From positions 1 through 59,639 of the forward strand of contig JBLINN010000001.1 of NCBI GenBank assembly GCA_047639325.1: 59,639 bases of DNA. The letters run 5' to 3'. The translations under genes were made by a program, and so were the position numbers. The notes under the pieces are model-generated. The model made no database searches and was not told the origin of the DNA. It saw only the letters and a list, made by a program, of their open reading frames with translations. Shown piece after piece: positions 36,642 to 59,488 of this stretch. How positions within the stretch are numbered: the stretch's first letter is position 1; the number at the start of each line of letters is the position of its first letter. This stretch comes from Paracoccaceae bacterium (GTDB taxonomy: Bacteria; Pseudomonadota; Alphaproteobacteria; Rhodobacterales; Rhodobacteraceae).

Positions 36642-37403
36642 TCAGTCAACCTTGGTGACCCGCGCAACAAAACTGTATCCGACCCCGTGGATTGTGTTGA
36701 TGACCTCAGGATCCGAAGCGGCGTGGCTCAGCTTTTTGCGCAGGCGCATGACATGGACGTCAATTGTGCGATCACCGGCAAAACTTGCCCGACCGCGCGC
36801 CGCGTCAAGCAGTTGATCGCGGGTGTAGACGGTGTTGGGATGCGCGGTGAAAAGCTGCAAAAGCTCAAACTCGCTGGTGGTCAGGGCCACATGGTCACCG
36901 GTATCGGCCGCGCTCAGCGACCGCTCGGCGGTGTTGAGGATCCAGTTGCCAAACTGAAAGCTGGGCGGGCGCGATTGTTCGGGCCTGGTATCCGCCGCCC
37001 GCGTGCGGCGCAGGATGGTTCGGATACGCGCCACCAACTCGCGCGGTTCAAACGGTTTCACCATGTAGTCATCGGCGCCAAATTCCAGCCCGACCACCCG
37101 GTCAAATGTCTCGTCCCGCCCCGAAAGCACCAGAATCGGCAGGTTGGATTCGGCGCGCAGATCGCGGGTGATATCAAGGCCACTTTTGCCCGGCAGGCCG
37201 ATATCAAGGATGCACAGATCAACGTTTTCGCGTGCCAGAATACCTTGCATTTCCCGCCCGTCCGACGCGCACAAGACCCGGTATTCCTGTTTTTCAAGAT
37301 AGCGCTTGAGGAACGATGTGATTTGTGGATCATCATCGACAACAAGGATCAGTTCTTTGTCCAGCGCGTTGTCCCCCAACAAATCAGAATCGCTGTTGGC
37401 CAT
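36642..37403 (-). CDS. OmpR-family response regulator
   Basis: REC (LVVDDD, ILDIGLPGKSG, KPF) plus a winged-helix C-terminus (TIDVHVMRLRKKL...GVGYSF). Confidence 0.85.
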   Translation of the reverse strand: MANSDSDLLGDNALDKELILVVDDDPQITSFLKRYLEKQEYRVLCASDGREMQGILARENVDLCILDIGLPGKSGLDITRDLRAESNLPILVLSGRDETFDRVVGLEFGADDYMVKPFEPRELVARIRTILRRTRAADTRPEQSRPPSFQFGNWILNTAERSLSAADTGDHVALTTSEFELLQLFTAHPNTVYTRDQLLDAARGRASFAGDRTIDVHVMRLRKKLSHAASDPEVINTIHGVGYSFVARVTKVD

Positions 37404-37512
37404 TCTAGCGGGTGCCGGGGCCTTTGCACCCCGAAATTCGAAAAGTCCCGGTCAAAGATGGAAAACCCAACCGGGCTCGCATAGGATAAGTATCAGAAAA
37501 GAAAGGTCCGAC

Positions 37513-39756
37513 GTGCTGCACGAGCCATCCAAACCCCGGGGAAAACGGCGCCTGCGCACAATGCCGATTGCGTTGCTCAGCGGATCCGTTTTGATGCTGA
37601 TCCTGACATTGATGATGGGGCTAAGTTACGAAACTTCGACCCGGTTTCGTCAGATCGAAGAAGGCTGGCAGGACTATACCAAAGACGCCGACCCGCGCGG
37701 GATTTGGATATCGGATATTCGCGGCTATTTTGGCTATGGCGGCATGATCCATAACTTCAAAAATTACGTCCTGCGCCGGGATCAAAAATACGCCCGCACC
37801 CTGCGCATCCAGACCGATCTGTTGCGAAAAGCCATTGGGGCCTATCAGAATGCCGGCCCCAGCCCGCTTGAACAGAAAGCGCTGATCCGTATCCACGGCG
37901 TGGTCGAGGAATATGCACAGCAGATCGACAAGATTGCCCTTGGCATCCGGCAGGGGTTATCAGCCGAGCAGATTGACGCGATTGTGCGGGTCGAGGATGC
38001 CGATGCGCTAAGGGCTTTGGCACTGTTGGAACGCAACTGGCGCGATCAGCGACAGCGCAACCTGAACGACATTGTCGCGGCTTTGTCCGAAGGCGAAACC
38101 CTGGTCCGCTATCTGACGGGGGCCATGGTATTGCTAACGGTTCTGGTTGGTTTGCTGGCCCTGCTGTTTTCCATTCTTGTCGGCGGTTCTTTGCGATCCA
38201 ACGCCGCCCAGATCCGCGAATTGAAGGCCCGCAAACAAGCCGAGGAAGAAGAACGCAAGCTGGCCTGGGTGGTGCAACAAAGCCCGGCCTCGATCCTGAT
38301 TACCGATACGCGCGGTAAAATCGAATTCGTGAACCGCAAGCTGCTGGAAATGACCGGTTACAGCGAATCCGAATTGGTCGGCCATTCGCCCAGCCTGCTG
38401 AAATCCGGGCACACGCCCGAGGCCGCCTATCGCGATATCTGGGCGCGGCTTCGCGAAGGGCATCCTTGGTCGGGCGTGTTCAAGAACCTCCGCAAGGATG
38501 GCAGCCACTACTGGGCCTCGACACAGCTGCTGCCGCTGTTGGATCAGGACAACAATATCACCAACTATATTGGCGTCGGCGAAGATATCAGTGAAAAAAT
38601 CCGCGTGGACGAACAGATCGCGCAGGTGCAAAAGATGGAGGCCGTGGGCATTCTGGCAGGCTCGGTTGCGCATGATTTCAACAATGTTCTTATGACCATC
38701 ATCGGCAATACCGAATTGATAAAGCTAGAGGTTGATGATCTGGCGGATAGCGCGGAAATCGCGGCATCTGTGGACCAAATCGAAATCGCCTCGCGCCGGG
38801 TCCGCGCCTTGATCCAGCAGTTGCTGACTTTTGCCCGCCAGCAACCGGGGCAGCCGCAGCGCCTGGATCTGCTGCAAGCGATCGAAGAGGTACTGGAACT
38901 GATCCGCGTGTCCACCCCGCCAAGGGTACAGATTGATCTGATTGCCAGCGATCAGGCATTGGCGACAGATATCGACCCCACCGCGTTTTTCCAGATTATC
39001 ATGAACCTGTGCCACAATGCGGTCGAAGCGATTGGCGACCGGGGCGGGGCGATTACCCTGCAACTGGGGCAGATTGCACCGGGGGGCGATGGCGGGCTGG
39101 ATACCCTGCCCAAAGCGGCAATTGGCAGCCTATCCATCACCATCCATGACGACGGCCCGGGCATTCCGCTGGATCTGCAAAACAAGGTGTTCGAGCCGTT
39201 CTTTTCCACCAAACCCGTGGGCAAGGGCACCGGCCTGGGGTTGGCGATTGTGCGCAACTGGGTGGAAGAGGCCGAAGGCCGGGTGACGTTGCAAAGTTCG
39301 CGCGCAACGGGGACGACGTTTACTTTGGTGTTCCCGCAATTCGAAATGCTGGACAGCGCGGTTGCGGTTCCCGATCAGCCGCCACGCGGTCAAGAACACA
39401 TTCTGCTGGTCGATGATGAAGAGGCGTTGCTGTACACTATTCGCCGGATGATGGCGCGGCTGGGCTATCGGGTCGAGGCTTTTTCCGATCCCGCGCTGGC
39501 GTTGCAGGCGTTCCGCATCAATCCGCAAAGCTATGATCTGGTGGCCACGGACATGATAATGCCCGAGATGAGCGGTGACGAATTGATCGTCGCCATCCGC
39601 GATATTCGTCCCGATGTTCCGGTCATGGTAATCAGTTCGTTTCACGCCACGGGCAGTTTCCCGCCGGGGTTTGAGGATGTCCGCAAGGTTGCAAAACCGG
39701 TTAATCTTGCCGGGTTGGCGATGGCGTTGCGGCAGGTGATTGACGGCACAGATTGA
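37513..39756 (+). CDS. Hybrid sensor histidine kinase (TM/sensor region, PAS, HisKA, HATPase, REC)
   Basis: PAS (ILITDTRGKIEFVNRKLLEMTGYSESELVGHSP), H-box GSVAHDFNNVL, G2 GTGLGLAIV, REC (ILLVDDEE...ATDMIMPEMSG...KP). Start is GTG 37513 or ATG 37561. Confidence 0.85.
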   Translation: MLHEPSKPRGKRRLRTMPIALLSGSVLMLILTLMMGLSYETSTRFRQIEEGWQDYTKDADPRGIWISDIRGYFGYGGMIHNFKNYVLRRDQKYARTLRIQTDLLRKAIGAYQNAGPSPLEQKALIRIHGVVEEYAQQIDKIALGIRQGLSAEQIDAIVRVEDADALRALALLERNWRDQRQRNLNDIVAALSEGETLVRYLTGAMVLLTVLVGLLALLFSILVGGSLRSNAAQIRELKARKQAEEEERKLAWVVQQSPASILITDTRGKIEFVNRKLLEMTGYSESELVGHSPSLLKSGHTPEAAYRDIWARLREGHPWSGVFKNLRKDGSHYWASTQLLPLLDQDNNITNYIGVGEDISEKIRVDEQIAQVQKMEAVGILAGSVAHDFNNVLMTIIGNTELIKLEVDDLADSAEIAASVDQIEIASRRVRALIQQLLTFARQQPGQPQRLDLLQAIEEVLELIRVSTPPRVQIDLIASDQALATDIDPTAFFQIIMNLCHNAVEAIGDRGGAITLQLGQIAPGGDGGLDTLPKAAIGSLSITIHDDGPGIPLDLQNKVFEPFFSTKPVGKGTGLGLAIVRNWVEEAEGRVTLQSSRATGTTFTLVFPQFEMLDSAVAVPDQPPRGQEHILLVDDEEALLYTIRRMMARLGYRVEAFSDPALALQAFRINPQSYDLVATDMIMPEMSGDELIVAIRDIRPDVPVMVISSFHATGSFPPGFEDVRKVAKPVNLAGLAMALRQVIDGTD

Positions 39757-44095: not shown

Positions 44096-44101
44096 GTTCT
44101 C

Positions 44102-44971: not shown

Positions 44972-45063
44972 TACCCCAGCAGCAACAAAACCACGGCCAC
45001 GTTGACCAGGGCACCCGCCAAAACAAACGCATCAAACGTATTGATTTTACGATGTTTCAGCAT
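44956..45063 (-). CDS. Possible 35-aa single-TM peptide
   Basis: MLKHRKINTFDAFVLAGALVNVAVVLLLLGYWLFA fills the gap between the cupredoxin-like and FGE-like genes. Below the ORF-track cutoff. Speculative. Confidence 0.2.
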   Translation of the reverse strand: MLKHRKINTFDAFVLAGALVNVAVVLLLLGYWLFA

Positions 45064-45086
45064 GGGCTACCCTTTGGGTCTGTTGC

Positions 45087-45827
45087 TTAGTAGGACAGGT
45101 CCTTGGTCACGGCGCCACCGGCATCGACGGTGATTTCACCGACCTCGACCTCGCCCAGGAACCCGTGCCACATCATCACTTCGTAGGTGCCCGCCGGGAT
45201 ACCATCGATCGAGAAACCGCCAGCCTCGTCCACCACCGAATAATAGGGGTTCTTGGCGACAAACACGAAGCTGTGCATGAAATCATGGGCGTCGCATTCG
45301 ACTTTCATGCCGTTGCCCCGGCGAAGTTTCACCTTTTTGGTGACCGTATCGCCCTTGCTGGGCTGCGATACATTCATCACCGTGCGACGCGCCTTGCCGA
45401 TCAGTTCGTAGGTATGGATGTTGTGCAGGGTCATGTCTGAATTATTCGCCGTCAGCTCGCCCCCATTGGCCATCACGCCCAAAACCGTCGAAAATTCACA
45501 GCCTTCCTGATCGATGGTCAGGTTCATTTGTTCCGCGTCAAAGGCCTTGCCTTCGCCAACCTCGTTCAGGAACACCACCGCGTTCATCAGCTTGCCGTCA
45601 CCGTTGATTTCCACAAACGGCACCTCGCGCGATCCCTCGCCGCAGATTTCCGGGTCTTTTGAAATGGTATAGCTGCGGGTGTCGGCCTCGGCAGCGCCGG
45701 CGGCCACGGTTCCGGCAAAGCTGCCACCATTGCTGACATCAACTTCTTTGTATCCCTTGGCGCTGGCCGTGGTGGCCAGACCAAGCAACGCCAGTGTCAT
45801 GGCGGATTTTGCAAGCGTATACTTCAT
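45087..45827 (-). CDS. Secreted cupredoxin-like protein with a C-terminal CarboxypepD_reg-like domain
   Basis: Signal peptide MKYTLAKSAMTLALLGLATTASA. Candidate type-1 Cu ligands are HNIH ... C-DA-H-DF-M, the amicyanin-type C-X2-H-X2-M spacing. C-terminal GGFSIDGIPAGTYEV. Confidence 0.5.
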   Translation of the reverse strand: MKYTLAKSAMTLALLGLATTASAKGYKEVDVSNGGSFAGTVAAGAAEADTRSYTISKDPEICGEGSREVPFVEINGDGKLMNAVVFLNEVGEGKAFDAEQMNLTIDQEGCEFSTVLGVMANGGELTANNSDMTLHNIHTYELIGKARRTVMNVSQPSKGDTVTKKVKLRRGNGMKVECDAHDFMHSFVFVAKNPYYSVVDEAGGFSIDGIPAGTYEVMMWHGFLGEVEVGEITVDAGGAVTKDLSY

Positions 45828-45854
45828 AGGATTTCCTTTCATTATGGGGGCCGT

Positions 45855-48065
45855 TCAGGCGACCAGCAGAGTTTGATCCGGCGTCTGCTCGGGGGCCTGC
45901 GTTTGAAAGATTTCAGCCAGCGCATCGATTGCCACCAACCACTGGTTCTTGCGGGCCTCGTCGTTTAGCAGGTCCAACAGCCGCGCAGCACCGGCATGTG
46001 GGGCGTATTCCCCCAGCAGCTTACCGATGTCGCGGCGATAGATACCGTCATTGCGCGCCGCAAATTCGACCAGCGCATCAACCCCGTCGTCACCACCAAG
46101 ACGCGCCAGCGCACGGGCGGCAGCGATGCCAGCCCCAAGGTAGCTGTCGTTCAGCGCACCGGTCAGCGCATCGCTGACCACATTACGCCGATCCAAGCTT
46201 CGGATCGCTTCGACCCGCACCAGCTGATCGTGATGACCGACAAGGGCGACCAGCAATTCGTCGATGGCGTCGCCGGGAAGAAAGCCAAACAGACGCGTCG
46301 CCAGCACCCGAATTTCCGAGTTTTCACTGTCCAGCAGACCCTTTGCCGTTTCAAACAGGCTGTCCGGCAAATGACCGCGTGAGTCGCCATGTTCGGCCAG
46401 CGAAAACAGCACTGCCTGCCGGGTTTCTTCGTCGATATCACTGTTCAGGGACGCGATCAGCGCCTCGGTAACCTCGTCCTGTACCACCTGCCCCAGCAAC
46501 CGCGCCGAAAACCGCTGAACATCCAGATACGGCGCCACTTCGGTGTCCCAGGACACTTTGCGCTTGGAAAACTTGCGGGTGTTGGTCATCGCCAGCAAGC
46601 GTTCCTGATCATCGTCCAAAATGATCTCTTGCAGCGGCGCTTTGGGTTGATCAGGCTCGTTGGCCATAATCGCGCGCAACGTCGATCCCGGCGCGGCATC
46701 TGCGGCCACCAATGGCAGGCTTTCATCAATCTCGCGGGCGATTTCCTCTAGCTCAGCCTGATCCGGCTCTGCTTTGGGCACCAGTTCGATCACCGGTTCA
46801 ACCTCTTCCACTTCTGGTTCTTCCGGCGGCAGCACCAATTCGCCTTTCAGCGCGATCAGCAGGCCGACACCCGCGTCATTTGGCCAGACGGGATCGTTTG
46901 CAGCGATATTGGCAAGGGTTGTCAGGCTGGACAGGCGCATTTGCCGGTTCGGGTCTGCGGCCACTTCCAACAAGGCGGGCACAGCGGTTTCCCCGGCTTT
47001 TTCAAGGGTTTCCAGCACGCCAATGCGGAATTCATGGGGGATTTTTGCGTTGCCCAGCACATGCATAAAACCTTTGGCAACCACCGGGCCTTTTAGGGCA
47101 AACAGCGCCAGCGCTGCGTGTCTGGCGGCAGTTGGGTCGCCCTTAACGGTGTTTTTCACCGCGTCCACCTGTTCCTTTTCCCGGAAAGTCTCGGGGTGGG
47201 CGGCGATGATTTTGAACACTTCGACGCGCACTTTGGGGTCCGCATCGGCAATCAGGTCGCGCAGAACCGGCAAGTGGGCCACCCCGTGATGGTGCACAGC
47301 AGCGGCGCGCACGACGGCGTCGGGGTCTTGAAACATCTCGACCAAACGCGCATCGTCAGACGCCAGGTTTTCCAGCGCAAGGGCGCGGATCGCGGCGGAT
47401 TTATCGGCCAGCATGTCGCCCAGCAGCGCGCTGAGATGCGGGTTATCCGACTGCCCCACGGCCCGGGCAACGCGCCGGACAAGGCGAGGATCGCCGCTTT
47501 CGTAAAAGACGCCCAGCGCCTGCGCCCCATCGTGGCCCATTTTGGCCAAAGCGCAAAACGCCGGTTCGCTAACATCCTGGCCCAATTCGTCGGCCATCGC
47601 GGTCAGAATTTCGGAAACCGCCTCTTCAACCTGAAAGTCGCCCAAAGCCTTGATCGAGGTCATCTGGATATCGTCCCAGGCGTCCCAACCATCGGTATAA
47701 AAGGCCTCTTCGTCCCAGGCGAATTGATCTTCTGAACGTGACACGGCCAAGGCGCGCAACAGCGGCACAACCGGTTGGTGGCGCATCGCCACAAGGGCCT
47801 TGATGGCCGCTTTCTTGACATCAGATTCCGGGTCGCCAACCAAGTTTTCCATCAGCTTGTCGGCTGTCTCTGGGTCCTGAATATCGGCCAGCGCCATCGC
47901 GGCATCGGTGCGCACATCCGGATCTTCATCCAGCAGCGCGGCGACCAGATCGCTGGTTGCTTTTGGCCCGCCGATGACCCCCAAAGCCCGGGCAGCCGCA
48001 CAGCGATGAACGTCTACCTCGCCCTTCAGGATTTCGCTAAGTCTTTCTGCTGATTTGATTTTCAT
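45855..48065 (-). CDS. Large HEAT-repeat (PBS-lyase-type) protein
   Basis: Repeated ...RxAAxALGxIGxxxAvxxLxxaLxDxDpxVRxxAaxAL... units throughout, with an acidic central linker. Start is ATG 48065 or GTG 48074. Confidence 0.8.
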   Translation of the reverse strand: MKIKSAERLSEILKGEVDVHRCAAARALGVIGGPKATSDLVAALLDEDPDVRTDAAMALADIQDPETADKLMENLVGDPESDVKKAAIKALVAMRHQPVVPLLRALAVSRSEDQFAWDEEAFYTDGWDAWDDIQMTSIKALGDFQVEEAVSEILTAMADELGQDVSEPAFCALAKMGHDGAQALGVFYESGDPRLVRRVARAVGQSDNPHLSALLGDMLADKSAAIRALALENLASDDARLVEMFQDPDAVVRAAAVHHHGVAHLPVLRDLIADADPKVRVEVFKIIAAHPETFREKEQVDAVKNTVKGDPTAARHAALALFALKGPVVAKGFMHVLGNAKIPHEFRIGVLETLEKAGETAVPALLEVAADPNRQMRLSSLTTLANIAANDPVWPNDAGVGLLIALKGELVLPPEEPEVEEVEPVIELVPKAEPDQAELEEIAREIDESLPLVAADAAPGSTLRAIMANEPDQPKAPLQEIILDDDQERLLAMTNTRKFSKRKVSWDTEVAPYLDVQRFSARLLGQVVQDEVTEALIASLNSDIDEETRQAVLFSLAEHGDSRGHLPDSLFETAKGLLDSENSEIRVLATRLFGFLPGDAIDELLVALVGHHDQLVRVEAIRSLDRRNVVSDALTGALNDSYLGAGIAAARALARLGGDDGVDALVEFAARNDGIYRRDIGKLLGEYAPHAGAARLLDLLNDEARKNQWLVAIDALAEIFQTQAPEQTPDQTLLVA

Positions 48066-48118
48066 CTGACTCACTCATGGTTTGATGCGCTAAACTATCA
48101 ACCCCGTCAGGCACGGCG

Positions 48119-48132
48119 TTGACCCAAGTCAA
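48119..48132 (-). promoter_or_regulatory. FNR/CRP-family (FnrL/Dnr-type) box upstream of the HEAT-repeat gene
   Basis: TTGACCCAAGTCAA is a perfect TTGAC-N4-GTCAA palindrome, centred about 60 nt upstream of ATG 48065. Confidence 0.55.
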
Positions 48133-48137: not shown

Positions 48138-48173
48138 GATCACCGGCCAGCGGATTCGCTCTGGCCGGTGATC
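48138..48173 (-). terminator. 13-bp perfect inverted repeat after the Mo-subunit gene
   Basis: GATCACCGGCCAG-N10-CTGGCCGGTGATC lies between stop 48219 and the FNR-type box. Weak T-tract, so it may be an attenuator or processing site. Confidence 0.4.
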
Positions 48174-48218
48174 ATTTCGACCGTTCCGGGGCGCCCAAAC
48201 CGGACGCCCCGGCATTTA

Positions 48219-50897
48219 TCAAATAACGATGTCGCGCGGTGCAAAGGACATCGACCGGAAGGTGTGCTTGTAAGGCGACTCACCAATCTTGGTGACCTTC
48301 GCGATACCCATCTTGAAGTTGTAGTTACCGCTGATCCAATCGACGACCCGTCCGGCCAAAGCGTTGGCAGGCTGGCTGGCATGCAAGAAGTCCATATACA
48401 TGACCCCCGGCTTAACCGCCCGCGTCACCATCGCCACCGCCGTTACCGCAGCTTCGCTAAGTTCGACGTTGCCGTTGGCCATCTGACCGGCGAACGAATA
48501 ATCCGATCCTTCGACCCCCAGCGTGGTGTCCTTCAACGAAGGCACGCGGTCATTGGACAGCAGGACCATATCGCCACTTTCGATACCGCGGGCTGCGGCA
48601 TCTTCGGTGTTGATCTCAACCCAGTTATCCGGCCAGCGCTGGACAATGTAGGGCCGCCGCGTGTCGTCGAAACCAGACTGCCAGCGTTCGTTGGCACGAC
48701 CGGACGTACACCACAGTTCGTCGCCTTTTGGCTTCATCCATTCCCAATAATCCGAGAACAGATCCCAAGGCGATTTCTGGATGTTGCACTTGCCGGTCTG
48801 CGAATTGAAATGCGTCAACTTCTTGTTGTACATGTTCAACGCAGTCGGCCCGCCTGGCATCAGCTTACGTGTGGTGTCATGCAGACGAACGGTGCCTTCC
48901 AGCGTTCCATCCGGGTGCATATAGACCGGGCCCTGAATACCGTTGGTTCCCATTTCGCGGAACTTCTGGTGCAGGGTCTTGCCCTCGCGATGCGCTGCCA
49001 CTTTGACCATGTTAAAGTCTTTGCGGCTGCCTCGGGTGAACTTGGCCAGTTCCTCGGCAACATCGTTAGAGTTTTCCCAATCAAAGCCCTCAAAGCCCAT
49101 CTTTTTGGCCAGCTGGGCAATGATCCACCAATCCGGTTTCGCTTCTCCCGGTGCATCGTAGAACTTTTGATACAGCCGGATACGACGTTCGCCGTTGGCC
49201 CGCAGGAAATCCTCTTCGCCCCAGGTTGCCGCCGGAAAGATGATGTCCGCAAACTGGTTGCCGATTGGATCGACCAGATAGATATCCTGGTTGACAACCA
49301 CCATGCCGCCACTATCAACCCGTGCTTTCAGGGTCTCAAGGATCTTTTCGCGGTTGATCGACTGGATCTGATGCGGGTTGCCACGGGTCAGTTCATGGAA
49401 CCGCTGCGACAATTGCTGAGATCCCAACATCGACTGGATCCAGGTGGTGCCGATGACATGTGCCATACGGGTGTGGCCCGCCATGGTCCAGGTATCCGTG
49501 TCCAGCGCCCGACGACGACGACCCGGCAGCTTCATCGGCGATTTGTTGCGCGGATAACCCCCGCCACGTACACCGCCACGCTGGTGACCACCCGCCCGGC
49601 CAATAACCTGACCAGGACGTCCGCCTGCGCCGACAGTGATCCCAAGTGCGGAAATCGCCTGGGTATTGCCGGTGTTGTTGGACCAATAGAAGCCTTTTTC
49701 GATCATGATCGAAGTTTTTGGCCGACTGCCATCATCTTTTGGCTTGGCCATCATCTCGGCTGCCAGCTGAATTTTCGCAGCATCCACGCCCGAAACTTCG
49801 GCCGCGGCTTCCAGCTTGAATTCATCCTGTGCCAGCAACCACTTGGACCAGTCTTCAAACCCTTTGGTCTGGAATTTGCCCCAGGTTGTCCGCCACTGCC
49901 AAGGGGTGTTCCGTGTGCCCTGACCAAAGCCCGAGGAAGACCCCCACTGGTCATTAACCCACTTTTCGATCCACTCTTTGTCCTGCCAGCCGTTCTCGAC
50001 GATGATCCGCGCAATGGCGTTGACCACCAACAGGTCTGTGCCGGGTGTCACGTCCAGCCACAGCCCGCCGTTCTGTTCGGCGTAAGCCACACCAGCGGTC
50101 TTGCGAGGCACCATAAAGATGGCCTTTTGACCATTCTGGATGCCCTTCATGATCCACTGCGTGAACAGGATCGTCTTGGTCTCGTAAGGGTCCGTGCCGC
50201 AGATCAACAGGGTTTCGGCGTTCATCCAGTCTTCGTAGGCCGGGCCGAAATTGTCGAACCCTGCATCCCGGAAACCGGGTGTCGAAGACACGTCAGACGG
50301 GGTGTCGTGGAAGGTGAAGTTTGCCGTGTTGATTGACCGCAAGGCGTATTTGGTGATCGCGTAGGTGTTCTCCATATACTGATAAGAGAACGTCTTGACG
50401 CCATAGGCATTGTGACCGTGCTTTTTGATCACGTATTTGCCGATTTCGGCGGCAATATCCAACGCAAAGTCCCATGGAACCGGTTGCAGGATGCCATAGA
50501 TACGCATCATCGGCGACTTCAGACGGTCCCGTGTCGGGGTTTCCGGATTATAGCACTTCTGCGCGATACAGCCGCCACGAAGCGAGCTGTCGCCGTCGGT
50601 ATTCACAAACTCGGTGTCTTTGTCGGGGATGATCACGACGTGGTGCGGCTCGCCTTCGTGCAGCACCACGTTGTGCTGGTTTGGGGCAACCCATGGGCCC
50701 AAAGGCGCCACCGGGAAATCTTCGCCAAATGCGTTTTCTTCGGCCTTCTGGCCACCGCGCTTGTCGCCTTTGACCGGCCAGCGATAGACTTTGTAACCAC
50801 AGGCAACGATGCAATAATCGCAGGCGGTGGTGATCACCTCGGCATCTGCCGGTGGCAGGGGCCCGTGTTGATCGGGGATGTAATACGGAGTTGACAT
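48219..50897 (-). CDS. Molybdopterin oxidoreductase large subunit, arsenite-oxidase/iodate-reductase (AioA/IdrA) family
   Basis: N-terminal 3Fe-4S motif TACDYCIVACGYKVYRW (C-X2-C-X3-C). Collinear with AioA as I recall it (PDK...SSLRGG, GGHQRG, NGERRIRLYQKF.D.PG, FDWEN). No own signal peptide. GGAGAGG Shine-Dalgarno. Confidence 0.88.
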   Translation of the reverse strand: MSTPYYIPDQHGPLPPADAEVITTACDYCIVACGYKVYRWPVKGDKRGGQKAEENAFGEDFPVAPLGPWVAPNQHNVVLHEGEPHHVVIIPDKDTEFVNTDGDSSLRGGCIAQKCYNPETPTRDRLKSPMMRIYGILQPVPWDFALDIAAEIGKYVIKKHGHNAYGVKTFSYQYMENTYAITKYALRSINTANFTFHDTPSDVSSTPGFRDAGFDNFGPAYEDWMNAETLLICGTDPYETKTILFTQWIMKGIQNGQKAIFMVPRKTAGVAYAEQNGGLWLDVTPGTDLLVVNAIARIIVENGWQDKEWIEKWVNDQWGSSSGFGQGTRNTPWQWRTTWGKFQTKGFEDWSKWLLAQDEFKLEAAAEVSGVDAAKIQLAAEMMAKPKDDGSRPKTSIMIEKGFYWSNNTGNTQAISALGITVGAGGRPGQVIGRAGGHQRGGVRGGGYPRNKSPMKLPGRRRRALDTDTWTMAGHTRMAHVIGTTWIQSMLGSQQLSQRFHELTRGNPHQIQSINREKILETLKARVDSGGMVVVNQDIYLVDPIGNQFADIIFPAATWGEEDFLRANGERRIRLYQKFYDAPGEAKPDWWIIAQLAKKMGFEGFDWENSNDVAEELAKFTRGSRKDFNMVKVAAHREGKTLHQKFREMGTNGIQGPVYMHPDGTLEGTVRLHDTTRKLMPGGPTALNMYNKKLTHFNSQTGKCNIQKSPWDLFSDYWEWMKPKGDELWCTSGRANERWQSGFDDTRRPYIVQRWPDNWVEINTEDAAARGIESGDMVLLSNDRVPSLKDTTLGVEGSDYSFAGQMANGNVELSEAAVTAVAMVTRAVKPGVMYMDFLHASQPANALAGRVVDWISGNYNFKMGIAKVTKIGESPYKHTFRSMSFAPRDIVI

Positions 50898-50909
50898 GTT
50901 TTTCCTCTC

Positions 50910-51491
50910 CTAACCTTGAAGGTTGTCGTGACGGCCGTAGATCAGCCCGAAAATTCCGGTGGCGTAGATATCGTCACCATCCAGTTCCAGCAGGATCTGC
51001 GGCAGGCTTTGATAGGCTTGCCCTGAAATCAGGATTCCGTGCCGTGTCAGGTCATATGTCGACAGGTGCAACGGGCAGGCGCCCAGGGATTTCGTGTCGG
51101 CCTTGTAGCTGTCAAACAACGTGCCACCCTGGTGGGTGCAGGCGTAATTGAACGCGACCACGTCCTGTTCCGGGCCGATGCCGCCACCGGCGCGAACGCC
51201 CATTTTGACGATCATGTTGTCGCTGTATTCGCCTTCGTCCGGGTAGTTGAAGTCAAACGGAACATCCGTTTTCAGATCGGACAGTTTGCCAATCAGCTTG
51301 CGCGGATATTCGGTGATTTGCGCCGGCACTTGCTTGGCCTGCGCCGTGCCCGGATCAAGGGTGATCATGATGGTCGTGGTGACCCCTGCCCCGATCAGGA
51401 ATTTACGGCGGGATACCAGGCACTTGTGCCCAACGGCCTTGGCGGCTTCCTTGCGGGTCATCCCCGTTTCGGCTTTTACATCTTGTGACAT
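50910..51491 (-). CDS. TAT-exported Rieske [2Fe-2S] small subunit (AioB/IdrB-like)
   Basis: Twin-arginine SRRKFLIGAG. Rieske boxes C-T-H-QGG and C-P-L-H. Start at ATG 51491 after AAGGA. Confidence 0.85.
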   Translation of the reverse strand: MSQDVKAETGMTRKEAAKAVGHKCLVSRRKFLIGAGVTTTIMITLDPGTAQAKQVPAQITEYPRKLIGKLSDLKTDVPFDFNYPDEGEYSDNMIVKMGVRAGGGIGPEQDVVAFNYACTHQGGTLFDSYKADTKSLGACPLHLSTYDLTRHGILISGQAYQSLPQILLELDGDDIYATGIFGLIYGRHDNLQG

Positions 51492-51511
51492 ATTTTTTCC
51501 TTTTCCAATGC

Positions 51512-52654
51512 TCACTCGGAAGCCATGGCTTCGTAGGGTGGCAAGACAGGCGGTTCGACTTCCAGTTCGTCACCCGAAAAGGCTTCGAGGAAGGCAACCA
51601 GTTGGCCCACTTCGTCGTCGTCCAAACCAAGCGGTTTGATCAGGTCGGATTTGGTTGATGACATGGTGCCGTCGGTAAAGTCGTTTTCACCGCCACCGGC
51701 GTTATAGAACTGAACCACTTCTTCGAGATCCCAGAACGCGCCATTGTGCATATACGGTGCCGTGTAGGCGGTATAGCGCAGGGGCGGGGTGCGGAATTTC
51801 CCCATGTGGTCCTTTTCCTTGGTGCGGAAATAAAGGCCCGGATCATCCTTCAGAACCCGGTACATTTCCTGGGTCACGCCCTTGGCAAAGATTTCATAGC
51901 GAAAGGTCACCTGCGCCAGTCCATCTTCTTCCCAACGCTCTGCGGGTGGCACGCCGATATTATAGTAATTCTCGTCCGTGGCCTGCGCGCCGTTGTGGCA
52001 CTGAATACAGCCCGCCTTGCCGTTAAACAGCTCCATCCCGGCGATCTGTTCTTCGGTCAGCGCGCTGGTCTCGCCGCCCAGATATTTATCAACCGGGGTG
52101 TCGTTGACGATCAGCGTGCGTTCAAACGCGGCAATCGCCGCCCATGCGTCGCCGATCAGCGGCCATTCGGTGCCGAACACATCGTTAAAGCGCGCCACGT
52201 ATTCCGGGATGAACGCCATCCGGGTTTCCATCACGTCGTTCTCGCCGTTCCCGGCAACCGCACCCTTGGCAGCAGACGGCGCCTGCTTTTCAAGCGAGGC
52301 AGCGGACCCGGCCCAAAACAACTGGCCCAGATAGGCCGAGTTGATCACCGACTGGCTGTTGCGCCAGTGAACGGTGCCCGGATAGCCGCGTGACAGGCTG
52401 TCGCCAAACCCCCAGCCCTGATCGGGCTCGTGGCAGGTGACACAGGCGGTCGATGCGTCGCCACCGATGCGCGGATCCCAGAACAGGATTTTGCCCAGTT
52501 CAACCTTGGCATCCGTCATCTTGTTATCCAGCGGAATGGGCGGATCGCCCAACGGGGCCAGGGCTGGATATTCCTGCGCCTGAGCCATCGCTGCCGAGGC
52601 GGCGATTGCCGCAACACCGGCCAGCAGAGTAAGTTTGTTTGTCATTGGTTTCAT
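51512..52654 (-). CDS. Di-haem cytochrome c peroxidase (CCP/MauG family), copy 2
   Basis: Signal peptide. CVTCH and CIQCH. FRTPPLRYTAYTAPYMHNG. Confidence 0.9.
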   Translation of the reverse strand: MKPMTNKLTLLAGVAAIAASAAMAQAQEYPALAPLGDPPIPLDNKMTDAKVELGKILFWDPRIGGDASTACVTCHEPDQGWGFGDSLSRGYPGTVHWRNSQSVINSAYLGQLFWAGSAASLEKQAPSAAKGAVAGNGENDVMETRMAFIPEYVARFNDVFGTEWPLIGDAWAAIAAFERTLIVNDTPVDKYLGGETSALTEEQIAGMELFNGKAGCIQCHNGAQATDENYYNIGVPPAERWEEDGLAQVTFRYEIFAKGVTQEMYRVLKDDPGLYFRTKEKDHMGKFRTPPLRYTAYTAPYMHNGAFWDLEEVVQFYNAGGGENDFTDGTMSSTKSDLIKPLGLDDDEVGQLVAFLEAFSGDELEVEPPVLPPYEAMASE

Positions 52655-52669
52655 CTTTCCTCTCCCGTC

Positions 52670-53791
52670 CTAGTTCTGAACTTCGCGCCAGTTTTCGATG
52701 GTCGGATAGTTGGTTGAAATAGGATCGGGCCAGACGTGCTCAGGACCGGTCAACGGATCACCAGACAGCGCCTCAAGGAAGGCAACAATGTCTTTCTGTT
52801 CAACAAATGTCAGGCCAAGCGGCTTGATGCGTTCGTCTTTGTTAGCGTCATCGCCACCACCGGCGTTGTAAAAGGCCACAACCTCGAACAGCGAACCAAA
52901 CATGCCGTTGTGCATGTAGGGCGCGGTGTAAGACAGCTCGCGCAGGGTGGGCGTATTGAACGACCCAATGTCGGACCCATCTGCCGGATGGCGGATAATC
53001 TGCGCACCCACGTCGCGGCGGATGTTCATGTAATTCTCGATGCCCATGAACTGCGCAAAGGCCGCAAAAGTCATGTGGCGCATCGGGTCGGACCAGATGT
53101 CGGGGTTCTCTGGCGTGCCGATGTTATAGGCCTGATCGTCAGTCAGACGCCGGCCATTGTGGCACGAGATACACCCGGCTTTGCCTTCAAAAAGCTCCTG
53201 ACCGCGCTGTGCGCCGTCAGACATGGTGCCTACGTCAAAGGGCGCACCGCGCGATGTCAGCGTTGCCAGATATTCCGGGATCGCCTTGCGGATTGACCCG
53301 TTCGACGGCTCGCCATATCCGGCCTCTTCGAACATCTTCACATAAATAGGGTCTTGCTTGACGCGTTCTTGCATCAGGCGCATGTCCATGTTCATCAGGT
53401 AATCTTCGGTGATCATTTCGCGGGTCACGTCGTTCAGGTTCGTGCCCAGACGCCCGTCGTGCATCCAGTTGGCGGCCAGCGCGGTGTTGATCAGGGTTGG
53501 CGTGTTGCGGAACCCTTTGGAACCCGGGTAGGCCAGCGACAGCGCCAAACCATCGGAATAGCCGTTTTCCGGCTGGTGGCAGCTGGCGCAGGATATCGCC
53601 GCGTCGCCCGAAAGCCGCTGGTCAAAGAACAGGCGCTGTCCCAGCGCGGCCTTGGCCTGGTTGATTTCCGGTGCCACGATCGGCCCCAGCGGTACTGTGT
53701 CCGCAAAGACGGTTCCGGCCAGCAAGGTTGCCCCCATCAGCGAGGCCCCCAATGTCAGCGCAAATCCGCGTTTGGATCGAGATATCGTCAT
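52670..53791 (-). CDS. Di-haem cytochrome c peroxidase (CCP/MauG family), copy 1
   Basis: Signal peptide MTISRSKRGFALTLGASLMGATLLAGTVFA. CASCH and CISCH. FNTPTLRELSYTAPYMHNG. Start trimmed to ATG 53791 after AAGGGAA. Confidence 0.9.
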   Translation of the reverse strand: MTISRSKRGFALTLGASLMGATLLAGTVFADTVPLGPIVAPEINQAKAALGQRLFFDQRLSGDAAISCASCHQPENGYSDGLALSLAYPGSKGFRNTPTLINTALAANWMHDGRLGTNLNDVTREMITEDYLMNMDMRLMQERVKQDPIYVKMFEEAGYGEPSNGSIRKAIPEYLATLTSRGAPFDVGTMSDGAQRGQELFEGKAGCISCHNGRRLTDDQAYNIGTPENPDIWSDPMRHMTFAAFAQFMGIENYMNIRRDVGAQIIRHPADGSDIGSFNTPTLRELSYTAPYMHNGMFGSLFEVVAFYNAGGGDDANKDERIKPLGLTFVEQKDIVAFLEALSGDPLTGPEHVWPDPISTNYPTIENWREVQN

Positions 53792-53887: not shown

Positions 53888-53901
53888 TTGACGGGCGTCA
53901 A
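53888..53901 (-). promoter_or_regulatory. FNR/CRP-family box upstream of the peroxidase-Rieske-Mo unit
   Basis: TTGACGGGCGTCAA is a perfect TTGAC-N4-GTCAA palindrome, about 103 nt upstream of ATG 53791. Confidence 0.55.
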
Positions 53902-53956: not shown

Positions 53957-56233
53957 TCAGGCGGTGAACCGTCTGCGGGCACGCCAGCCGATCAGCAGAA
54001 AAACCAAACCCGCCAGCAATCCCGCCACAACCGCTGTTGCGATGGTTTTTGTCGGGTTCTCCACCGGCTCCAGCAGGATCCAGTACCAGGCGGTAAAGCT
54101 TTGGCGCAGGCCGATCTCGCCATTCAGCCCATCCCAATTGGCGAAAGCGATGGGGGTATAGACCCCTTCGTCAAATTGCAGATCCTGCGGCGTGCCAGTG
54201 TCCAGCGCGCGGGTAAACACCACCTGCCAGCGGCCATCTTTCCAAGTGCCTGTGGCCCTTAAATCTGAGCTGTCGGCGCGCGGCGTAGGCGCCTTTTCCT
54301 GCCCCTTGGCATCACTGATCACCACGGTTGCGGGCAGTTCCGGATCCTGCGAGGGCGCCGTCCAGTGCCAGATATTCACCGAGTTCTTGCGATCACCCTG
54401 GCGGAAATAGGGTTTCTCGGCCGTGCCAGTCAGCGCCGCCGGTATCTGCACCGCAATCGCGTCGCGTGTGGCGGTGACATCGTCCAGCGCATATTGCTGT
54501 TCCAGCGCGGATCCCGGCACCGAATAGGTGCGGTCATCCACATCAACGCGCAGCGCGATATCATCGGCATTATACAGCGCCCGCACCGTCACCATCTCGT
54601 TCAGGGAAAAGAACAACCGCGGTTCCTTGATAACGTTGGGCGACAGGCGGAAGGTCATCGCCGGGGCACCATCCCAGGCAGGATCATCGCCATCGCTGGG
54701 CAGATCGCCATCGACACGCACCGCGCGGATCACGCTGTCGCCCTTGCTAAGCGGCGTCGCATTATTGCGCAGGGTCATCACGTAATTCGCCACCGCCCAG
54801 CGGTCTTCCAGGCTCATATTGGTTGAATGTTCCGGCATCGGCGTGCTGGGAATCCCCGCTGACAGGCGCTGAAACACGTCCTTAGCGTCCACCGACCAGC
54901 GCCAAGTTTCAGGCTGGGTCAGGTTGCGCGGCCAGATGCGGTTTTCCCAATCATCCGCCAGCCGCTTGCCCGACATGATGTTGCCGCGCCCTGCATTGCC
55001 GTGGCATTCGCGGCAGGCCTTTTCGAATTGCACCCGACCATTGGCCAGCGCCGCATCGGTCACTTCGGGCGGGGTGCCCAATTCAATCGCCGTCAGGCCC
55101 AGATCTTCGGCGGTTTCTTCCTCCCAATATCCGAAGGTTTTGATCTTATAGATCAGCGCATCAATTTCAGCGTCACTCAGGATGGTTTTCCAGCCTGGCA
55201 TCGCGGTGCCCGGCAGCCCTTCGCGGATGGTTTCGCGCAGGTCGGCATCAGTGGGGAATTCGCTGTCGGAATCGGTGGTCTTGTATTTGAACAAACCCAG
55301 GGTGAAATCACGCGGCGCCGGATACATCCGCTCTGCCGCAATCCCCAGCCCGTCGCCGTCATCGCCGTGGCATTGCGAACAGCGCTTTGTATAGATCGCA
55401 TCAACCGCGCCTTCGTCCAGCGCAGCGCCTTCGGCAGCGGTGTCAGAACCCTCTTCCGCCCCGCCGGTGCTTTCCTCCAGCTCCCACGATCGCGGCTCAA
55501 ACCCGGTATAGTCATATAGGAACGAGATGATTTTCCACACCTCATGCTCTTGCAGCATATCCTCCCACACCGGCATCGCCGACGCCCAAGGCGTACCTTC
55601 CACCGGCAGGCCCGGGCCGCCTTTGGTAATACGCCAGAACAGGAACGCCTCTTGCAGCTGGGCGATGGTGCCCACGTCTTGAAAGTTGATCGGGCGCGGG
55701 GTGAACGCCCCGGCGAAATGCCCGGCCCCGTCCAGCAGGTCGCCGTGGCAGTAAACGCAGTTCTCGTAATACAGCCCCGCCCCCTCGGCGACGATCTCGC
55801 GGTATTCGTCCGAGGCTTCGTCAAATTCCGCGCGGAACGGGTTTTCCAGCGTCAAAAGGTTAAAGGTCTTGCCATAGGCCTTCAGACTGGAGGGCGGCGC
55901 TGGGTGGACGGTGCGCAATTCAGCAGGCGACACAATCGACGGCTTGACGATATCATAGGTCAGCGCGCCCACGCCGGCGACCGTGGCCACAAGGGCAACC
56001 GCGCGCAAGACCTTGCGCTGGGGCGAGCCGAACAGCGACACCAGCGGTGCAAAGAACCGCCCAGCAGTGGCATTGTCAAAGGTTACCACCAGCAAAACGC
56101 CGACGGTGCAGATGATCATGTACTGGATCAGCAAGGACGCGGGCAAAGGCGGGTTCAGGATGTGGGCGAACACCGCGTAAAGACCACCAAGAACCACCAG
56201 GGCCAGCGTCAGGGGATGTTTCAGGAATGCCAT
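53957..56233 (-). CDS. Membrane-anchored trihaem cytochrome c fused to an EB_dh/DOMON-like haem-binding domain
   Basis: About three N-terminal TM helices. CVYCH, CSQCH, CRECH. The C-terminal part (DDPAWDGAPAMTF...GTWKDGRWQVVFTRALDTG...PIAFANWDG...) resembles ethylbenzene-dehydrogenase gamma-type domains. Final TM anchor. Confidence 0.75.
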   Translation of the reverse strand: MAFLKHPLTLALVVLGGLYAVFAHILNPPLPASLLIQYMIICTVGVLLVVTFDNATAGRFFAPLVSLFGSPQRKVLRAVALVATVAGVGALTYDIVKPSIVSPAELRTVHPAPPSSLKAYGKTFNLLTLENPFRAEFDEASDEYREIVAEGAGLYYENCVYCHGDLLDGAGHFAGAFTPRPINFQDVGTIAQLQEAFLFWRITKGGPGLPVEGTPWASAMPVWEDMLQEHEVWKIISFLYDYTGFEPRSWELEESTGGAEEGSDTAAEGAALDEGAVDAIYTKRCSQCHGDDGDGLGIAAERMYPAPRDFTLGLFKYKTTDSDSEFPTDADLRETIREGLPGTAMPGWKTILSDAEIDALIYKIKTFGYWEEETAEDLGLTAIELGTPPEVTDAALANGRVQFEKACRECHGNAGRGNIMSGKRLADDWENRIWPRNLTQPETWRWSVDAKDVFQRLSAGIPSTPMPEHSTNMSLEDRWAVANYVMTLRNNATPLSKGDSVIRAVRVDGDLPSDGDDPAWDGAPAMTFRLSPNVIKEPRLFFSLNEMVTVRALYNADDIALRVDVDDRTYSVPGSALEQQYALDDVTATRDAIAVQIPAALTGTAEKPYFRQGDRKNSVNIWHWTAPSQDPELPATVVISDAKGQEKAPTPRADSSDLRATGTWKDGRWQVVFTRALDTGTPQDLQFDEGVYTPIAFANWDGLNGEIGLRQSFTAWYWILLEPVENPTKTIATAVVAGLLAGLVFLLIGWRARRRFTA

Positions 56234-56242
56234 AATCGTCCC

Positions 56243-57379
56243 CTATTCCGGCAGGTTCATCAGATAGTCGAGCAGCAGGGTCATTTCGCCCTCGGTCATG
56301 TCATCACCAAAATAGTCGGGCATCAGGTCGGCCTCGTAACCGTCGGCGATCTCGGCATTCGGGTCGATGATCGACGCCTTCAACGCCTCGCGGTTCATGC
56401 GCGCGCCAATACCGTTCAGCTTTGGCCCCATGTCGGCCTCGCTGCCTTGCAGATCATGGCACCCGGCACAGCCGTATTCGTCGATTACCCCGGCGGCGTC
56501 GGTGATCGGACCGCTGTCTTCAGGTTCTTTGCTGGGGTCCGGTTCCGGCAGGGTCAGCAAGTGATCAACGATCAGCAGCAATTCACTGGCGTGCATGTCC
56601 CCACCAAAGCTGTCGGGCATCAGGCCTTCGTCATAGCCGGCCGCGATCTCGGCATTTGGGTCCAGAATCGCCCCCATCAATTCACTGCGGCTCATCCGGT
56701 TGGCAATGCCCCCCAAAGCCGGGCCAAGATCGGCGCCGCTGTCGTTCAGATCGTGACAGGCAGCACAGGAAAACTTGTCCAGTGCGGCGATCACGTCGGT
56801 TTCCGGGGCCTCGATCATGCCATCACCGATGGCCGGGGCCGTATCCACCGGCGTGTCTTCGGCCGAGGGCAGCGGCACGGTTGGCCCCATCCCGGCGCGG
56901 TCCTGCAAAAAGGCGATGACAGCGTTGATTTCAACGGCGCTCAGTTCAATTGGCGCCGCATCCACCACCGGCATCGGGCTTACGCTGTCATTGGTGCCCT
57001 TTTTGCCAAACCCGGCGACCACATAGGCTGATGGGGCCTGCATCGACTCGCGCAGATAACCCTCGACCGCTTTTGGCCCTTCGCCCCCCGCCGCAACGCC
57101 GGAATACCCCGCATCGGCCAGCCGTTCGGGGAAGGTCGCGGCCAGGTCCATTTCCAGCGTATCAGGTGCGCGGCCCATACCATTGTGACACAGCGTACAA
57201 GTCCCCTTGCCGGAAAACAGCCCCTCGCCCAGGGTGATCATGCCCGCCATGTCCAGCCCTTCGGTCGAGACTTCGATAGGTTCGGACAGGTCCGGTTCAA
57301 CCTGTGGCAGGATATGCGCAAAAACCGCGTAGAACCCCAGCAGGACAAGGCTGAAAGTGATGACGCGCAGGAAGGTCAT
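56243..57379 (-). CDS. Membrane-anchored trihaem cytochrome c
   Basis: N-terminal TM. CTLCH, CAACH, CAGCH. Haem domains 2 and 3 are obvious internal duplicates. Confidence 0.8.
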   Translation of the reverse strand: MTFLRVITFSLVLLGFYAVFAHILPQVEPDLSEPIEVSTEGLDMAGMITLGEGLFSGKGTCTLCHNGMGRAPDTLEMDLAATFPERLADAGYSGVAAGGEGPKAVEGYLRESMQAPSAYVVAGFGKKGTNDSVSPMPVVDAAPIELSAVEINAVIAFLQDRAGMGPTVPLPSAEDTPVDTAPAIGDGMIEAPETDVIAALDKFSCAACHDLNDSGADLGPALGGIANRMSRSELMGAILDPNAEIAAGYDEGLMPDSFGGDMHASELLLIVDHLLTLPEPDPSKEPEDSGPITDAAGVIDEYGCAGCHDLQGSEADMGPKLNGIGARMNREALKASIIDPNAEIADGYEADLMPDYFGDDMTEGEMTLLLDYLMNLPE

Positions 57380-59130: not shown

Positions 59131-59139
59131 GTCACGCCC

Positions 59140-59268
59140 CTATTGCGGCATCAGATCAGCGCCGACAGGCAGACCCTGCGCTTGCATGATCGACTTATCC
59201 ATTAAGTAGAAAAACGCCGCCCAAACGACCAACGCCCCCACAAAAACCACCAAACTGCGTCCTGTCAT
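59140..59268 (-). CDS. Possible 42-aa single-TM peptide
   Basis: MTGRSLVVFVGALVVWAAFFYLMDKSIMQAQGLPVGADLMPQ. Its stop is 9 nt before the bd-like ATG. Below the ORF-track cutoff. Confidence 0.3.
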   Translation of the reverse strand: MTGRSLVVFVGALVVWAAFFYLMDKSIMQAQGLPVGADLMPQ

Positions 59269-59288
59269 CCTGCCGTCCCAGCCAATTT

Positions 59289-59411
59289 CTAGTGAACCGA
59301 GATCACGCCGTGATCAAAGATCAGCAACCACCAGAAGAAATAAATCATCGCGACCGCAGTCGCGGCGAAGACCAGCTTGCCAAGGGTTGTGCTTTGTTTG
59401 CCATCTGCCAT
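59289..59411 (-). CDS. Possible 40-aa single-TM peptide, first gene of the island
   Basis: MADGKQSTTLGKLVFAATAVAMIYFFWWLLIFDHGVISVH, preceded by GAGGCAGGG. Below the ORF-track cutoff. Confidence 0.3.
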   Translation of the reverse strand: MADGKQSTTLGKLVFAATAVAMIYFFWWLLIFDHGVISVH

Positions 59412-59474: not shown

Positions 59475-59488
59475 TTGACGGACGTCAA
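59475..59488 (-). promoter_or_regulatory. FNR/CRP-family box at the head of the island
   Basis: TTGACGGACGTCAA is a perfect TTGAC-N4-GTCAA palindrome, centred about 70 nt upstream of ATG 59411. Confidence 0.55.

Follow-up and report, generated by a model that had tools for sequence, protein, structure and literature searches.

Is the peroxidase-peroxidase-Rieske-molybdenum gene set on the minus strand of a Paracoccaceae contig an iodate reductase (Idr) operon, or does it encode an arsenite oxidase (Aio), the name under which nearly all of its named public homologs are filed? The set occupies positions 53791-48219 of a 59,639-nucleotide (nt) stretch (GenBank assembly GCA_047639325.1, contig JBLINN010000001.1), the whole of which was analyzed and is called the window here. 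A first-pass annotation, made from the sequence alone, had proposed that this core resembles iodate reductase rather than arsenite oxidase, and the tree of the large subunit, the model score, the active-site blocks, and the gene context all fall on the Idr side. We consider it very probable that the set is an idrP2-idrP1-idrB-idrA operon encoding an iodate reductase that acts in the periplasm and belongs to the Aio/Idr branch of the dimethyl sulfoxide (DMSO)-reductase family.

The large subunit was aligned in a set of 39 sequences, from which neighbor-joining trees were built on corrected p-distances (38 sequences and 300 bootstraps in the bootstrap run). The sample comprised the window protein, 12 alphaproteobacterial homologs from named genomes, the Vibrio and Azonexus proteins, four AioAs verified by their gene context, and representatives of clusters at 50% identity, chosen to cover the range between and outside these groups. 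The window IdrA fell within an alphaproteobacterial clade (100% bootstrap) that was joined successively by Vibrio and the homolog P0121 (100%) and by the IdrA of Azonexus (91%); the AioA clade (NT-26, Thermus HB8, Ralstonia, Pseudosulfitobacter) stood apart at 100%. The first-pass annotation had described IdrA as sister to AioA and pointed to a tree of both as the means of placing the protein; run here by neighbor joining, that tree has the window protein with the Azonexus IdrA, inside the IdrA clade and outside AioA. Pairwise identities follow the same division, at 50-52% to the Azonexus IdrA versus 30-33% to the AioAs, and a tblastn search of plasmid records returned Vibrio sp. THAF190c (65%), Azonexus (50%), and Thiothrix (49%), all other matches being AioAs at 33% or less.

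Scores against the curated AioA model TIGR02693 separate the two groups widely. The window protein scored 429 bits, the Azonexus IdrA 426, and the Roseovarius conchicola homolog 422, versus 1500 for the AioA of NT-26 and 1468 for that of Thermus HB8; the window match spans positions 3-751 of the 806 in the model, and the NT-26 and Thermus proteins match it end to end. The curated cut-offs are nominally passed by both subunits (429 versus 359 bits for TIGR02693; 118 versus 96 bits for IdrB with TIGR02694), but that of TIGR02693 does not discriminate, because the IdrA of a confirmed iodate respirer also passes it. Nearly all named public homologs, including those of Ruegeria, Roseibium, Pseudovibrio, and Pelagimonas (P0022-P0112 and P0457-P0485 in our set), are labeled "arsenate reductase (azurin) large subunit" or "arsenite oxidase large subunit", a misnaming that arises because a cut-off of 359 admits IdrA (422-429 bits) while AioAs score ~1470-1500. 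Among solved structures, the closest to the window IdrA are those of AioA (4AAY, 301 bits).

The active-site blocks read HDTPSDVSS and GGHQRG in the window protein versus HNRPAYNSE and GGHQEG in AioA, replacing Asn with Asp and Glu with Ser in the first block and Glu with Arg in the second. By the residue roles in AioA structures, the two AioA blocks belong to the substrate pocket. The Glu-to-Arg change in the second block is present in most Idr-side sequences, and Azonexus has a Cys at that position.

The arrangement of the genes points the same way. The order of two peroxidase genes, Rieske gene, and molybdenum-subunit gene is that of the idr locus on a plasmid of Azonexus hydrophilus NCP973, and it is colinear in 67 of the 68 related loci with enough upstream sequence. 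It is by exactly this four-gene synteny with two peroxidase genes that Reyes-Umana et al. (2021; PMC8692401) tell idrA from aioA. Unlike the window, our four control AioA loci have no peroxidase genes, and they carry either aioX/S/R-type sensor and regulator genes (NT-26, Pseudosulfitobacter) or arsR/arsC (Thermus, Ralstonia). The first-pass annotation had reported no aioXSR genes, arsenic resistance genes, or RpoN-type promoter, and that observation holds: no aioXSR or ars gene was found among the Pfam and NCBIfam matches of 44 of the longer open reading frames (ORFs) of the 59.6-kb window, and no sigma-54 consensus in three intergenic regions, where the best match has 3-4 mismatches in 10.

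The four genes are tightly packed, with 15 nt between idrP2 and idrP1, a 4-nt overlap between idrP1 and idrB, and 12 nt between idrB and idrA. The catalytic subunit gene, idrA (48219..50897, minus strand), encodes a protein of 892 amino acids (aa) and 99.9 kDa, assigned as the subunit carrying molybdenum-bis(molybdopterin guanine dinucleotide) (Mo-bisMGD) and a [3Fe-4S] cluster, with the Pfam domains PF18465 (Rieske_3, the 3Fe-4S domain), PF00384, and PF01568. Its cluster motif, C26-X2-C29-X3-C33, is encoded at nt 50822-50799, exactly where the first-pass annotation had placed it, and Ser103/104 at +70/71 completes a CX2CX3CX70S pattern. That annotation had also described the large subunit as free of a signal peptide; the N-terminus is not hydrophobic, and no transmembrane (TM) or signal segment was found there or along the protein. 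An antisense ORF of 722 aa on the plus strand (48168-50336), counted as lying wholly inside idrA, has no family support and was taken as a chance ORF.

The Rieske [2Fe-2S] small subunit is encoded by idrB (50910..51515, minus strand) as a 201-aa ORF with a signal for twin-arginine translocation (TAT); its start is probably ATG 51491, giving 193 aa, as in Profundibacter amoris. The earlier description of a TAT Rieske protein is borne out by two motifs, SRRKFL (residue 35) and CTH-X18-CPLH (residue 126), both of which match those given for the IdrB of Azoarcus DN11 (PMC10149662). IdrB is 54% identical to the Azonexus IdrB versus 36-41% to AioB.

Directly before the enzyme genes, as had been noted, stand two di-heme cytochrome c peroxidase (CCP)-family genes, and each product matches PF03150 (CCP_MauG) and has two CxxCH motifs behind a hydrophobic, signal-like N-terminal segment. 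Every part of the predicted core is present on the minus strand. From these features, both peroxidases are predicted to be Sec-exported di-heme proteins. The first gene of the operon, idrP2 (52670..53791, minus strand), encodes 373 aa from its ATG (PF03150 E 1.9e-36; CASCH at residue 68, CISCH at 207). Called mechanically, the ORF extends to GTG 53875; the P. amoris ortholog is called at 372 aa. Its product shares 43% identity with that of the first of the two ccp genes in the Azonexus idr locus and 78% with the P. amoris protein. The second, idrP1 (51512..52654, minus strand; 380 aa; PF03150 E 2.4e-37; CVTCH at residue 71, CIQCH at 216), has bacterial di-heme CCPs as its closest solved structures (1NML, E 5e-47) and is 55% identical to the second ccp gene product of Azonexus. 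We infer the name P2 for the first peroxidase from the order of accessions A, B, P1, P2 in Azoarcus DN11 (PMC10149662).

Relatives of the locus came from a scan of GTDB species representatives, which gave 520, and the best 80 of these, all from Alphaproteobacteria and at least 75% identical, were fetched as loci. The closest are Rhodobacteraceae metagenome-assembled genomes (MAGs) labeled Amylibacter, Neptunicoccus, and Marinosulfonomonas, with IdrA 89-94% identical, and in the cultured P. amoris (CP032125) every gene of the locus has its counterpart, IdrA at 92% identity. These sequence relationships place the host in the Rhodobacteraceae, near Profundibacter, Amylibacter, and Neptunicoccus, in agreement with the earlier suggestion of a roseobacter. 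Homologs from Roseovarius, an Aliiroseovarius sp., Ruegeria, and Thalassovita belong to the same clade at 74-77% identity; that of Thalassovita (Litorimicrobium) taeanensis, a species named as a predicted iodate reducer by Reyes-Umana et al. (PMC8692401), is 75.5% identical. A homolog search started from the Roseovarius conchicola protein, together with a look-up of ten NCBI clusters, gave names such as Aliiroseovarius sp., Thalassovita taeanensis, and Ruegeria, but not the R. azorensis protein WP_093034476.1. A search of cluster representatives returned many proteins of 1100-2100 aa (P0138, P0168-P0216), long fusions whose N-terminal ~430 residues are ~34% identical to the Idr/Aio large subunit.

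How might the operon be controlled? Three matches to TTGAY-N4-RTCAA lie in the window, where 0.26 would be expected, and none of 100 shuffles reached three. These are the only such FNR-type boxes in 59.6 kb; each is intergenic and stands before one of three co-oriented units, of which the idr operon is the middle one. The anaerobic-type box that the first-pass annotation had seen is an FNR/Crp-type site, TTGACgcccGTCAA, at 53888..53901 on the minus strand, about 100-113 nt upstream of the idrP2 ATG, and its position is kept in seven of the fetched loci (L008, L010, L011, L012, L031, L047, and L088, the last from P. amoris) with a varying 4-nt spacer. The second box (48119..48132, minus strand) lies in the 144-nt gap between idrA and a HEAT-repeat gene; it is kept 59-95 nt before the HEAT gene in L008-L011, L013, L017, L023, L047, and L048, and L088 has a box at the same place between the two genes. 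The third (59475..59488, minus strand) precedes a unit of small ORFs and a cytochrome bd-like gene, and is kept 358-394 nt before the bd-like ORF, just ahead of two small ORFs, in L008, L010-L012, L017, L031, L047, and L088. The three positions, with varying spacers, are thus common to the closest relatives and P. amoris, and their conservation suggests one low-oxygen regulon.

Two further genes bear on regulation. A PAS hybrid sensor histidine kinase is encoded at 37306..39756 on the plus strand, with two TM segments flanking a periplasmic region of ~170 aa, and it shares 41-51% identity with the kinase that immediately precedes idrP2 in the loci of Ruegeria, Roseovarius conchicola, Cohaesibacter, and Stappiaceae. 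By this relationship it is a candidate sensor for the cluster, perhaps of iodate. In P. amoris, a divergent Crp/FNR-family regulator gene and a ferrochelatase gene lie just past the point where the window ends.

If the models published for Pseudomonas sp. SCT and Denitromonas IR-12 (PMC8692401; PMC10149662) are carried over, the mechanism would run as follows. The IdrAB dimer would be exported folded by the TAT system, IdrA presumably riding on the signal of IdrB. Electrons from the quinone pool would pass through periplasmic carriers to the Rieske cluster of IdrB, on to the 3Fe-4S cluster of IdrA, and then to Mo-bisMGD, where IO3- would be reduced to HIO; disproportionation or chemical reduction would then yield iodide, and IdrP1 and IdrP2 would remove H2O2 or another oxidant by-product. 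The operon would be switched on at low oxygen, as we infer from the conserved FNR-type box together with expression data from Roseovarius azorensis, with iodate as a second signal that is possibly sensed by the linked PAS hybrid kinase.

Those expression data belong to a body of work on this alphaproteobacterial group that largely removes the earlier reservation that the protein could equally belong to an uncharacterized Aio-like clade (PMC11445184, PMC13455634). Static, but not shaken, cultures of R. azorensis, Aliiroseovarius sediminilitoris, and Notoacmeibacter marinus reduce 2 mM iodate; in R. azorensis, iodate raises expression of the four idr genes 59-102-fold and static growth raises it 43-61-fold, induction begins at 0.1 µM iodate, and IdrA (99.4 kDa) is the top protein of the activity-stained band (PMC11445184). 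A synthetic idrABP1P2 set from an alphaproteobacterial MAG of an oxygen minimum zone (OMZ), Fu_MAG_99, raised iodate reduction in Escherichia coli (PMC13455634). Conversion of iodate to iodide that depends on idrA and on Mo has been shown for other members of the system only.

Several observations nevertheless weigh against the iodate reductase assignment. Methyl-viologen-linked activity in R. azorensis extracts was below 0.1 U/mg, and the strains tested did not grow anaerobically on iodate (PMC11445184); "respiratory" iodate reduction is not established for the alphaproteobacterial clade. Our literature search found no paper linking Profundibacter with iodate, and the function of the window genes is read from sequence; nor did the literature searched yield a report of substrate range (bromate, chlorate, selenate). 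The tree is a neighbor-joining and not a maximum-likelihood tree, its Azonexus node stands at 91% and not 100%, and Azonexus, 50-52% identical, supplies the only IdrA from a confirmed organism in it, those of Pseudomonas sp. SCT, Denitromonas IR-12, and R. azorensis being outside the sample. Finally, His197, Arg434, and His438 of the window protein are retained at the conserved HNRP and RxGGHQ positions of AioA, and some turnover of arsenite would be compatible with the IdrA sequence alone.

The most probable alternative concerns physiology only. It accepts that iodate is reduced but sees the reaction in this aerobic roseobacter-type host as an electron sink or redox valve, or as oxidant handling, during transient hypoxia on particles or in OMZ water, with no growth-supporting respiration. 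The authors of the roseobacter study propose such a sink for their three strains, in which reduction was confined to static culture and anaerobic growth was absent (PMC11445184), and the FNR-type boxes of the window would fit induction under microoxic conditions. However, the linked membrane unit of bd-like and multiheme proteins described below could couple the enzyme to the quinol pool, which suggests an organized branch of electron transport, and iodate respiration yields energy in Denitromonas and in Azonexus (PMC13455634 for Azonexus). We regard the electron-sink account as a credible contender, although short of an even chance.

A different primary substrate for the alphaproteobacterial clade, such as bromate, chlorate, selenate, or another oxyanion, with iodate as a side activity, appears improbable to us. 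It draws on the large divergence (~50% identity) from the genetically proven betaproteobacterial IdrA, on the first active-site block, where Azonexus has HDKCSATND versus HDTPSDVSS in the window, and on the missing substrate-range report. However, the 0.1 µM iodate that induces R. azorensis idrA is the seawater level, and IdrA heads the proteins of the activity band in that organism (PMC11445184); an alphaproteobacterial cluster conferred iodate reduction on E. coli (PMC13455634); and four-gene synteny with the proven systems is strictly kept. The arsenite oxidase (AioBA) reading, which has in its favor the two TIGR models passed above cut-off, AioA as closest solved structure, the names of the homologs, and the three retained residues, is rejected as highly improbable on the tree (AioA apart at 100%, identity 30-33%), the model score (429 bits versus 1468-1500 in genuine AioAs), the changed HNRPAYNSE/GGHQEG motifs, and a context in which two peroxidase genes, absent from AioA loci (PMC8692401), precede the enzyme and in which no aioXSR, ars genes, or sigma-54 promoter was found in the window.

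With iodate reductase as the preferred assignment, what do the flanking genes contribute? Most of these accessory genes stay linked to idr across many alphaproteobacterial genomes, and the Azonexus and Vibrio idr loci lack all of them, in both flanking units. Upstream (53957-59411, minus strand), the third FNR-type box is followed by two small single-TM ORFs of 40 and 42 aa (59411-59289 and 59268-59140), which are conserved in P. amoris (MSGKNENTLLGKLVF... and MLGNKWLVFVVALVVW...) and may be CydX-like small subunits. Next come, by their Pfam and NCBIfam matches, a cytochrome bd subunit-I-like membrane protein (59130-57376), a tri-heme cytochrome c (57379-56243), and a TM-anchored protein (56233-53957) that combines three cytochrome c domains with a heme-b domain of the EB_dh (NxrC/EbdC) type. 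A profile search of the PDB matched only the N-terminal ~150 residues of the bd-like protein to CydA; two residues in this match, His62 and Glu149, show no variation across the family alignment. The family is larger than Idr, with 7201 of 8000 candidates matching at E<=1e-5. Of the 49 loci with 9 kb of sequence on both sides, 19 carry two or more of the three large genes, placed upstream of idr in 5 and downstream in 14, and members of the trio are 34-91% identical across alphaproteobacterial idr loci. This linkage survives rearrangement, which argues for a functional tie. A 738-aa homolog, P0302, considered as a fusion of bd-like protein and cytochrome c, was rejected as too likely a read-through or contig artifact.

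Downstream (39766-48074, minus strand), idrA is directly followed by the gene for a 739-aa HEAT-repeat protein (48074-45855) with an acidic linker and no signal peptide. A HEAT gene follows idrA in 62 of the 70 loci with at least 2.5 kb beyond idrA, directly adjacent in 48, and is effectively a fifth idr-linked gene; judged from its sequence, its product is possibly a cytoplasmic assembly factor. The literature search found no paper that joins idrA with HEAT repeats or cytochrome bd, and the paper of Reyes-Umana et al. mentions neither. The next gene encodes a 251-aa periplasmic cupredoxin-like protein (45842-45087) found in 38 loci, in which H140, C183, H186, and M189 are invariant among 28 homologs (LHNIH ... 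C-x2-H-x-F-M, with amicyanin-like spacing). An hhalign comparison with amicyanin aligned the four ligands, but at E 0.0025 and a probability of 12%; PF00127 is matched by only 2 of the 28 members, at E 0.11; a profile search of the PDB found only a C-terminal CarboxypepD_reg-like sandwich; and a single-sequence AlphaFold2 model, with a predicted local distance difference test score of 31.5, was discarded. The conserved ligand set makes a blue-copper electron carrier a possible role.

The remaining downstream genes encode an FGE-sulfatase/NirV-like protein (44971-44102) and a protein with one USP and two PCP_red domains (44095-42446), both by Pfam and NCBIfam matches, an AhbD/NirJ2-like radical-SAM/SPASM protein with a PCP_red domain (42449-41163), whose 299 bits fall short of the equivalog cut-off, and a flavoprotein of the protoporphyrinogen-oxidase family (41166-39766; TIGR00562, 259 bits). 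These genes at 39766-44971 stand at one end of the cluster; the ferrochelatase and Crp/FNR regulator genes of P. amoris (L088, 7294-9049) stand at the other. Together they look like a set for supplying heme (possibly by the coproporphyrin route) and copper to a cluster whose demand is at least 13 hemes.

Tentatively, and as a view that we think rather doubtful, the idr operon of marine Alphaproteobacteria may form the center of a conserved regulon of ~22 kb (37306-59488) that is under FNR control and has its own electron-supply chain. In such a regulon, the bd-like protein and the two small TM peptides would oxidize quinol, and electrons would then pass from the tri-heme cytochrome c to the tri-heme-c/EB_dh protein and, perhaps through the cupredoxin-like protein, to the Rieske cluster of IdrB. 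The HEAT-repeat, FGE/NirV-like, and AhbD-like/protoporphyrinogen-oxidase-like proteins would serve assembly and the supply of heme or copper.

Upstream of the cluster, the window has a LuxI-type autoinducer-synthase gene (21976-22680) and a flagellar block (30566-36455; motB, flgE, flgK, flagellin-like, flgI), both ordinary roseobacter-type content that is unrelated to idr. Scans of the window for sigma-70 promoters and terminators did no better than on shuffles, searches for tRNAs and Rfam matches returned none, and no clear G+C island was seen; the window itself offers no evidence for or against recent horizontal transfer.

The idr core is an ordinary member of an already described system, and idr in marine Alphaproteobacteria has been published before: the system was described in 2020-2021 and catalogued in 145 genomes that include marine Alphaproteobacteria, roseobacter-group strains were tested for function in 2024 (PMC11445184), and heterologous expression followed in 2026 (PMC13455634). 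To the known carriers the window adds the Profundibacter/Amylibacter/Neptunicoccus lineage of the Rhodobacteraceae. Marine bacteria that reduce iodate set the iodide level in the surface ocean and in OMZ water, which in turn controls ozone deposition and the emission of iodine to the atmosphere, and misnaming by the AioA model distorts surveys of both arsenic and iodine metabolism; a higher cut-off or an IdrA model would fix this. What we did not find in the literature searched is limited to the conserved accessory genes under FNR-type boxes, which may supply the link from quinol to Idr. If the regulon proposal is true, it fills a step that published models of iodate respiration leave to "a non-dedicated quinol oxidoreductase", and culturable hosts, P. 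amoris and other roseobacter-group strains, would be available for testing the bd-like/NxrC-like module.

Outside the Idr systems, the accessory unit has a possible counterpart beside nitrite oxidoreductase (NXR) in Nitrospira, Nitrospina, and Kuenenia, where a bd-like protein whose N-terminus aligns with CydA, with heme ligands kept and no Q-loop, and an EB_dh-type heme-b protein, c-type cytochromes, and cupredoxin-like proteins adjoin a periplasmic molybdenum enzyme (PMC3578206). The 2013 Nitrospina genome paper called that set of bd-like protein, alternative NxrC, cytochrome c, and cupredoxin enigmatic (PMC3578206). The window shows the same kinds of parts, a likeness drawn from description and not from sequence, but its molybdenum enzyme is of the Aio/Idr type with a Rieske partner, whereas NXR is a type II DMSO reductase. 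AioBA (Alcaligenes faecalis, Pseudorhizobium banfieldiae NT-26, Thermus HB8) has the same two-subunit layout as the window enzyme, Rieske/TAT and 3Fe-4S/Mo; physiologically it runs the other way, as an oxidase that passes electrons to cytochrome c or azurin, and forms a clade separate from the window IdrA.

Among the Idr systems themselves, Pseudomonas sp. SCT, Denitromonas iodatirespirans IR-12, Azoarcus sp. DN11, and Azonexus NCP973 (one of five isolated dissimilatory iodate reducers; PMC13455634) have the same four genes in the same order as the window and the same cofactor motifs (CX2CX3C...S and CXH-X18-CX2H), with a TAT signal on the B subunit only and Sec-type di-heme peroxidases. Upstream of those clusters lies a sigma-54 two-component system of the AtoS/AtoC type, and a small cytochrome c gene and moaA adjoin the idr operon in Azonexus and Pseudomonas SCT but not in DN11. 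The window differs in having FNR-type boxes, a PAS hybrid kinase in place of the AtoS/AtoC-type pair of the betaproteobacterial loci, the HEAT-repeat gene, and the bd-like/multiheme unit. The marine alphaproteobacterial idr clusters share host class and habitat with the window, the predicted mass of 99.9 kDa for its IdrA compares with 99.4 kDa in R. azorensis, and the low-oxygen induction of the R. azorensis genes fits the FNR-type boxes found here. Within this group, the locus of Roseovarius conchicola represents a short form (kinase, idrP2P1BA, HEAT-repeat gene, and DUF2478), whereas the window and P. amoris share a long form that adds the bd-like unit and the heme-synthesis-like genes.

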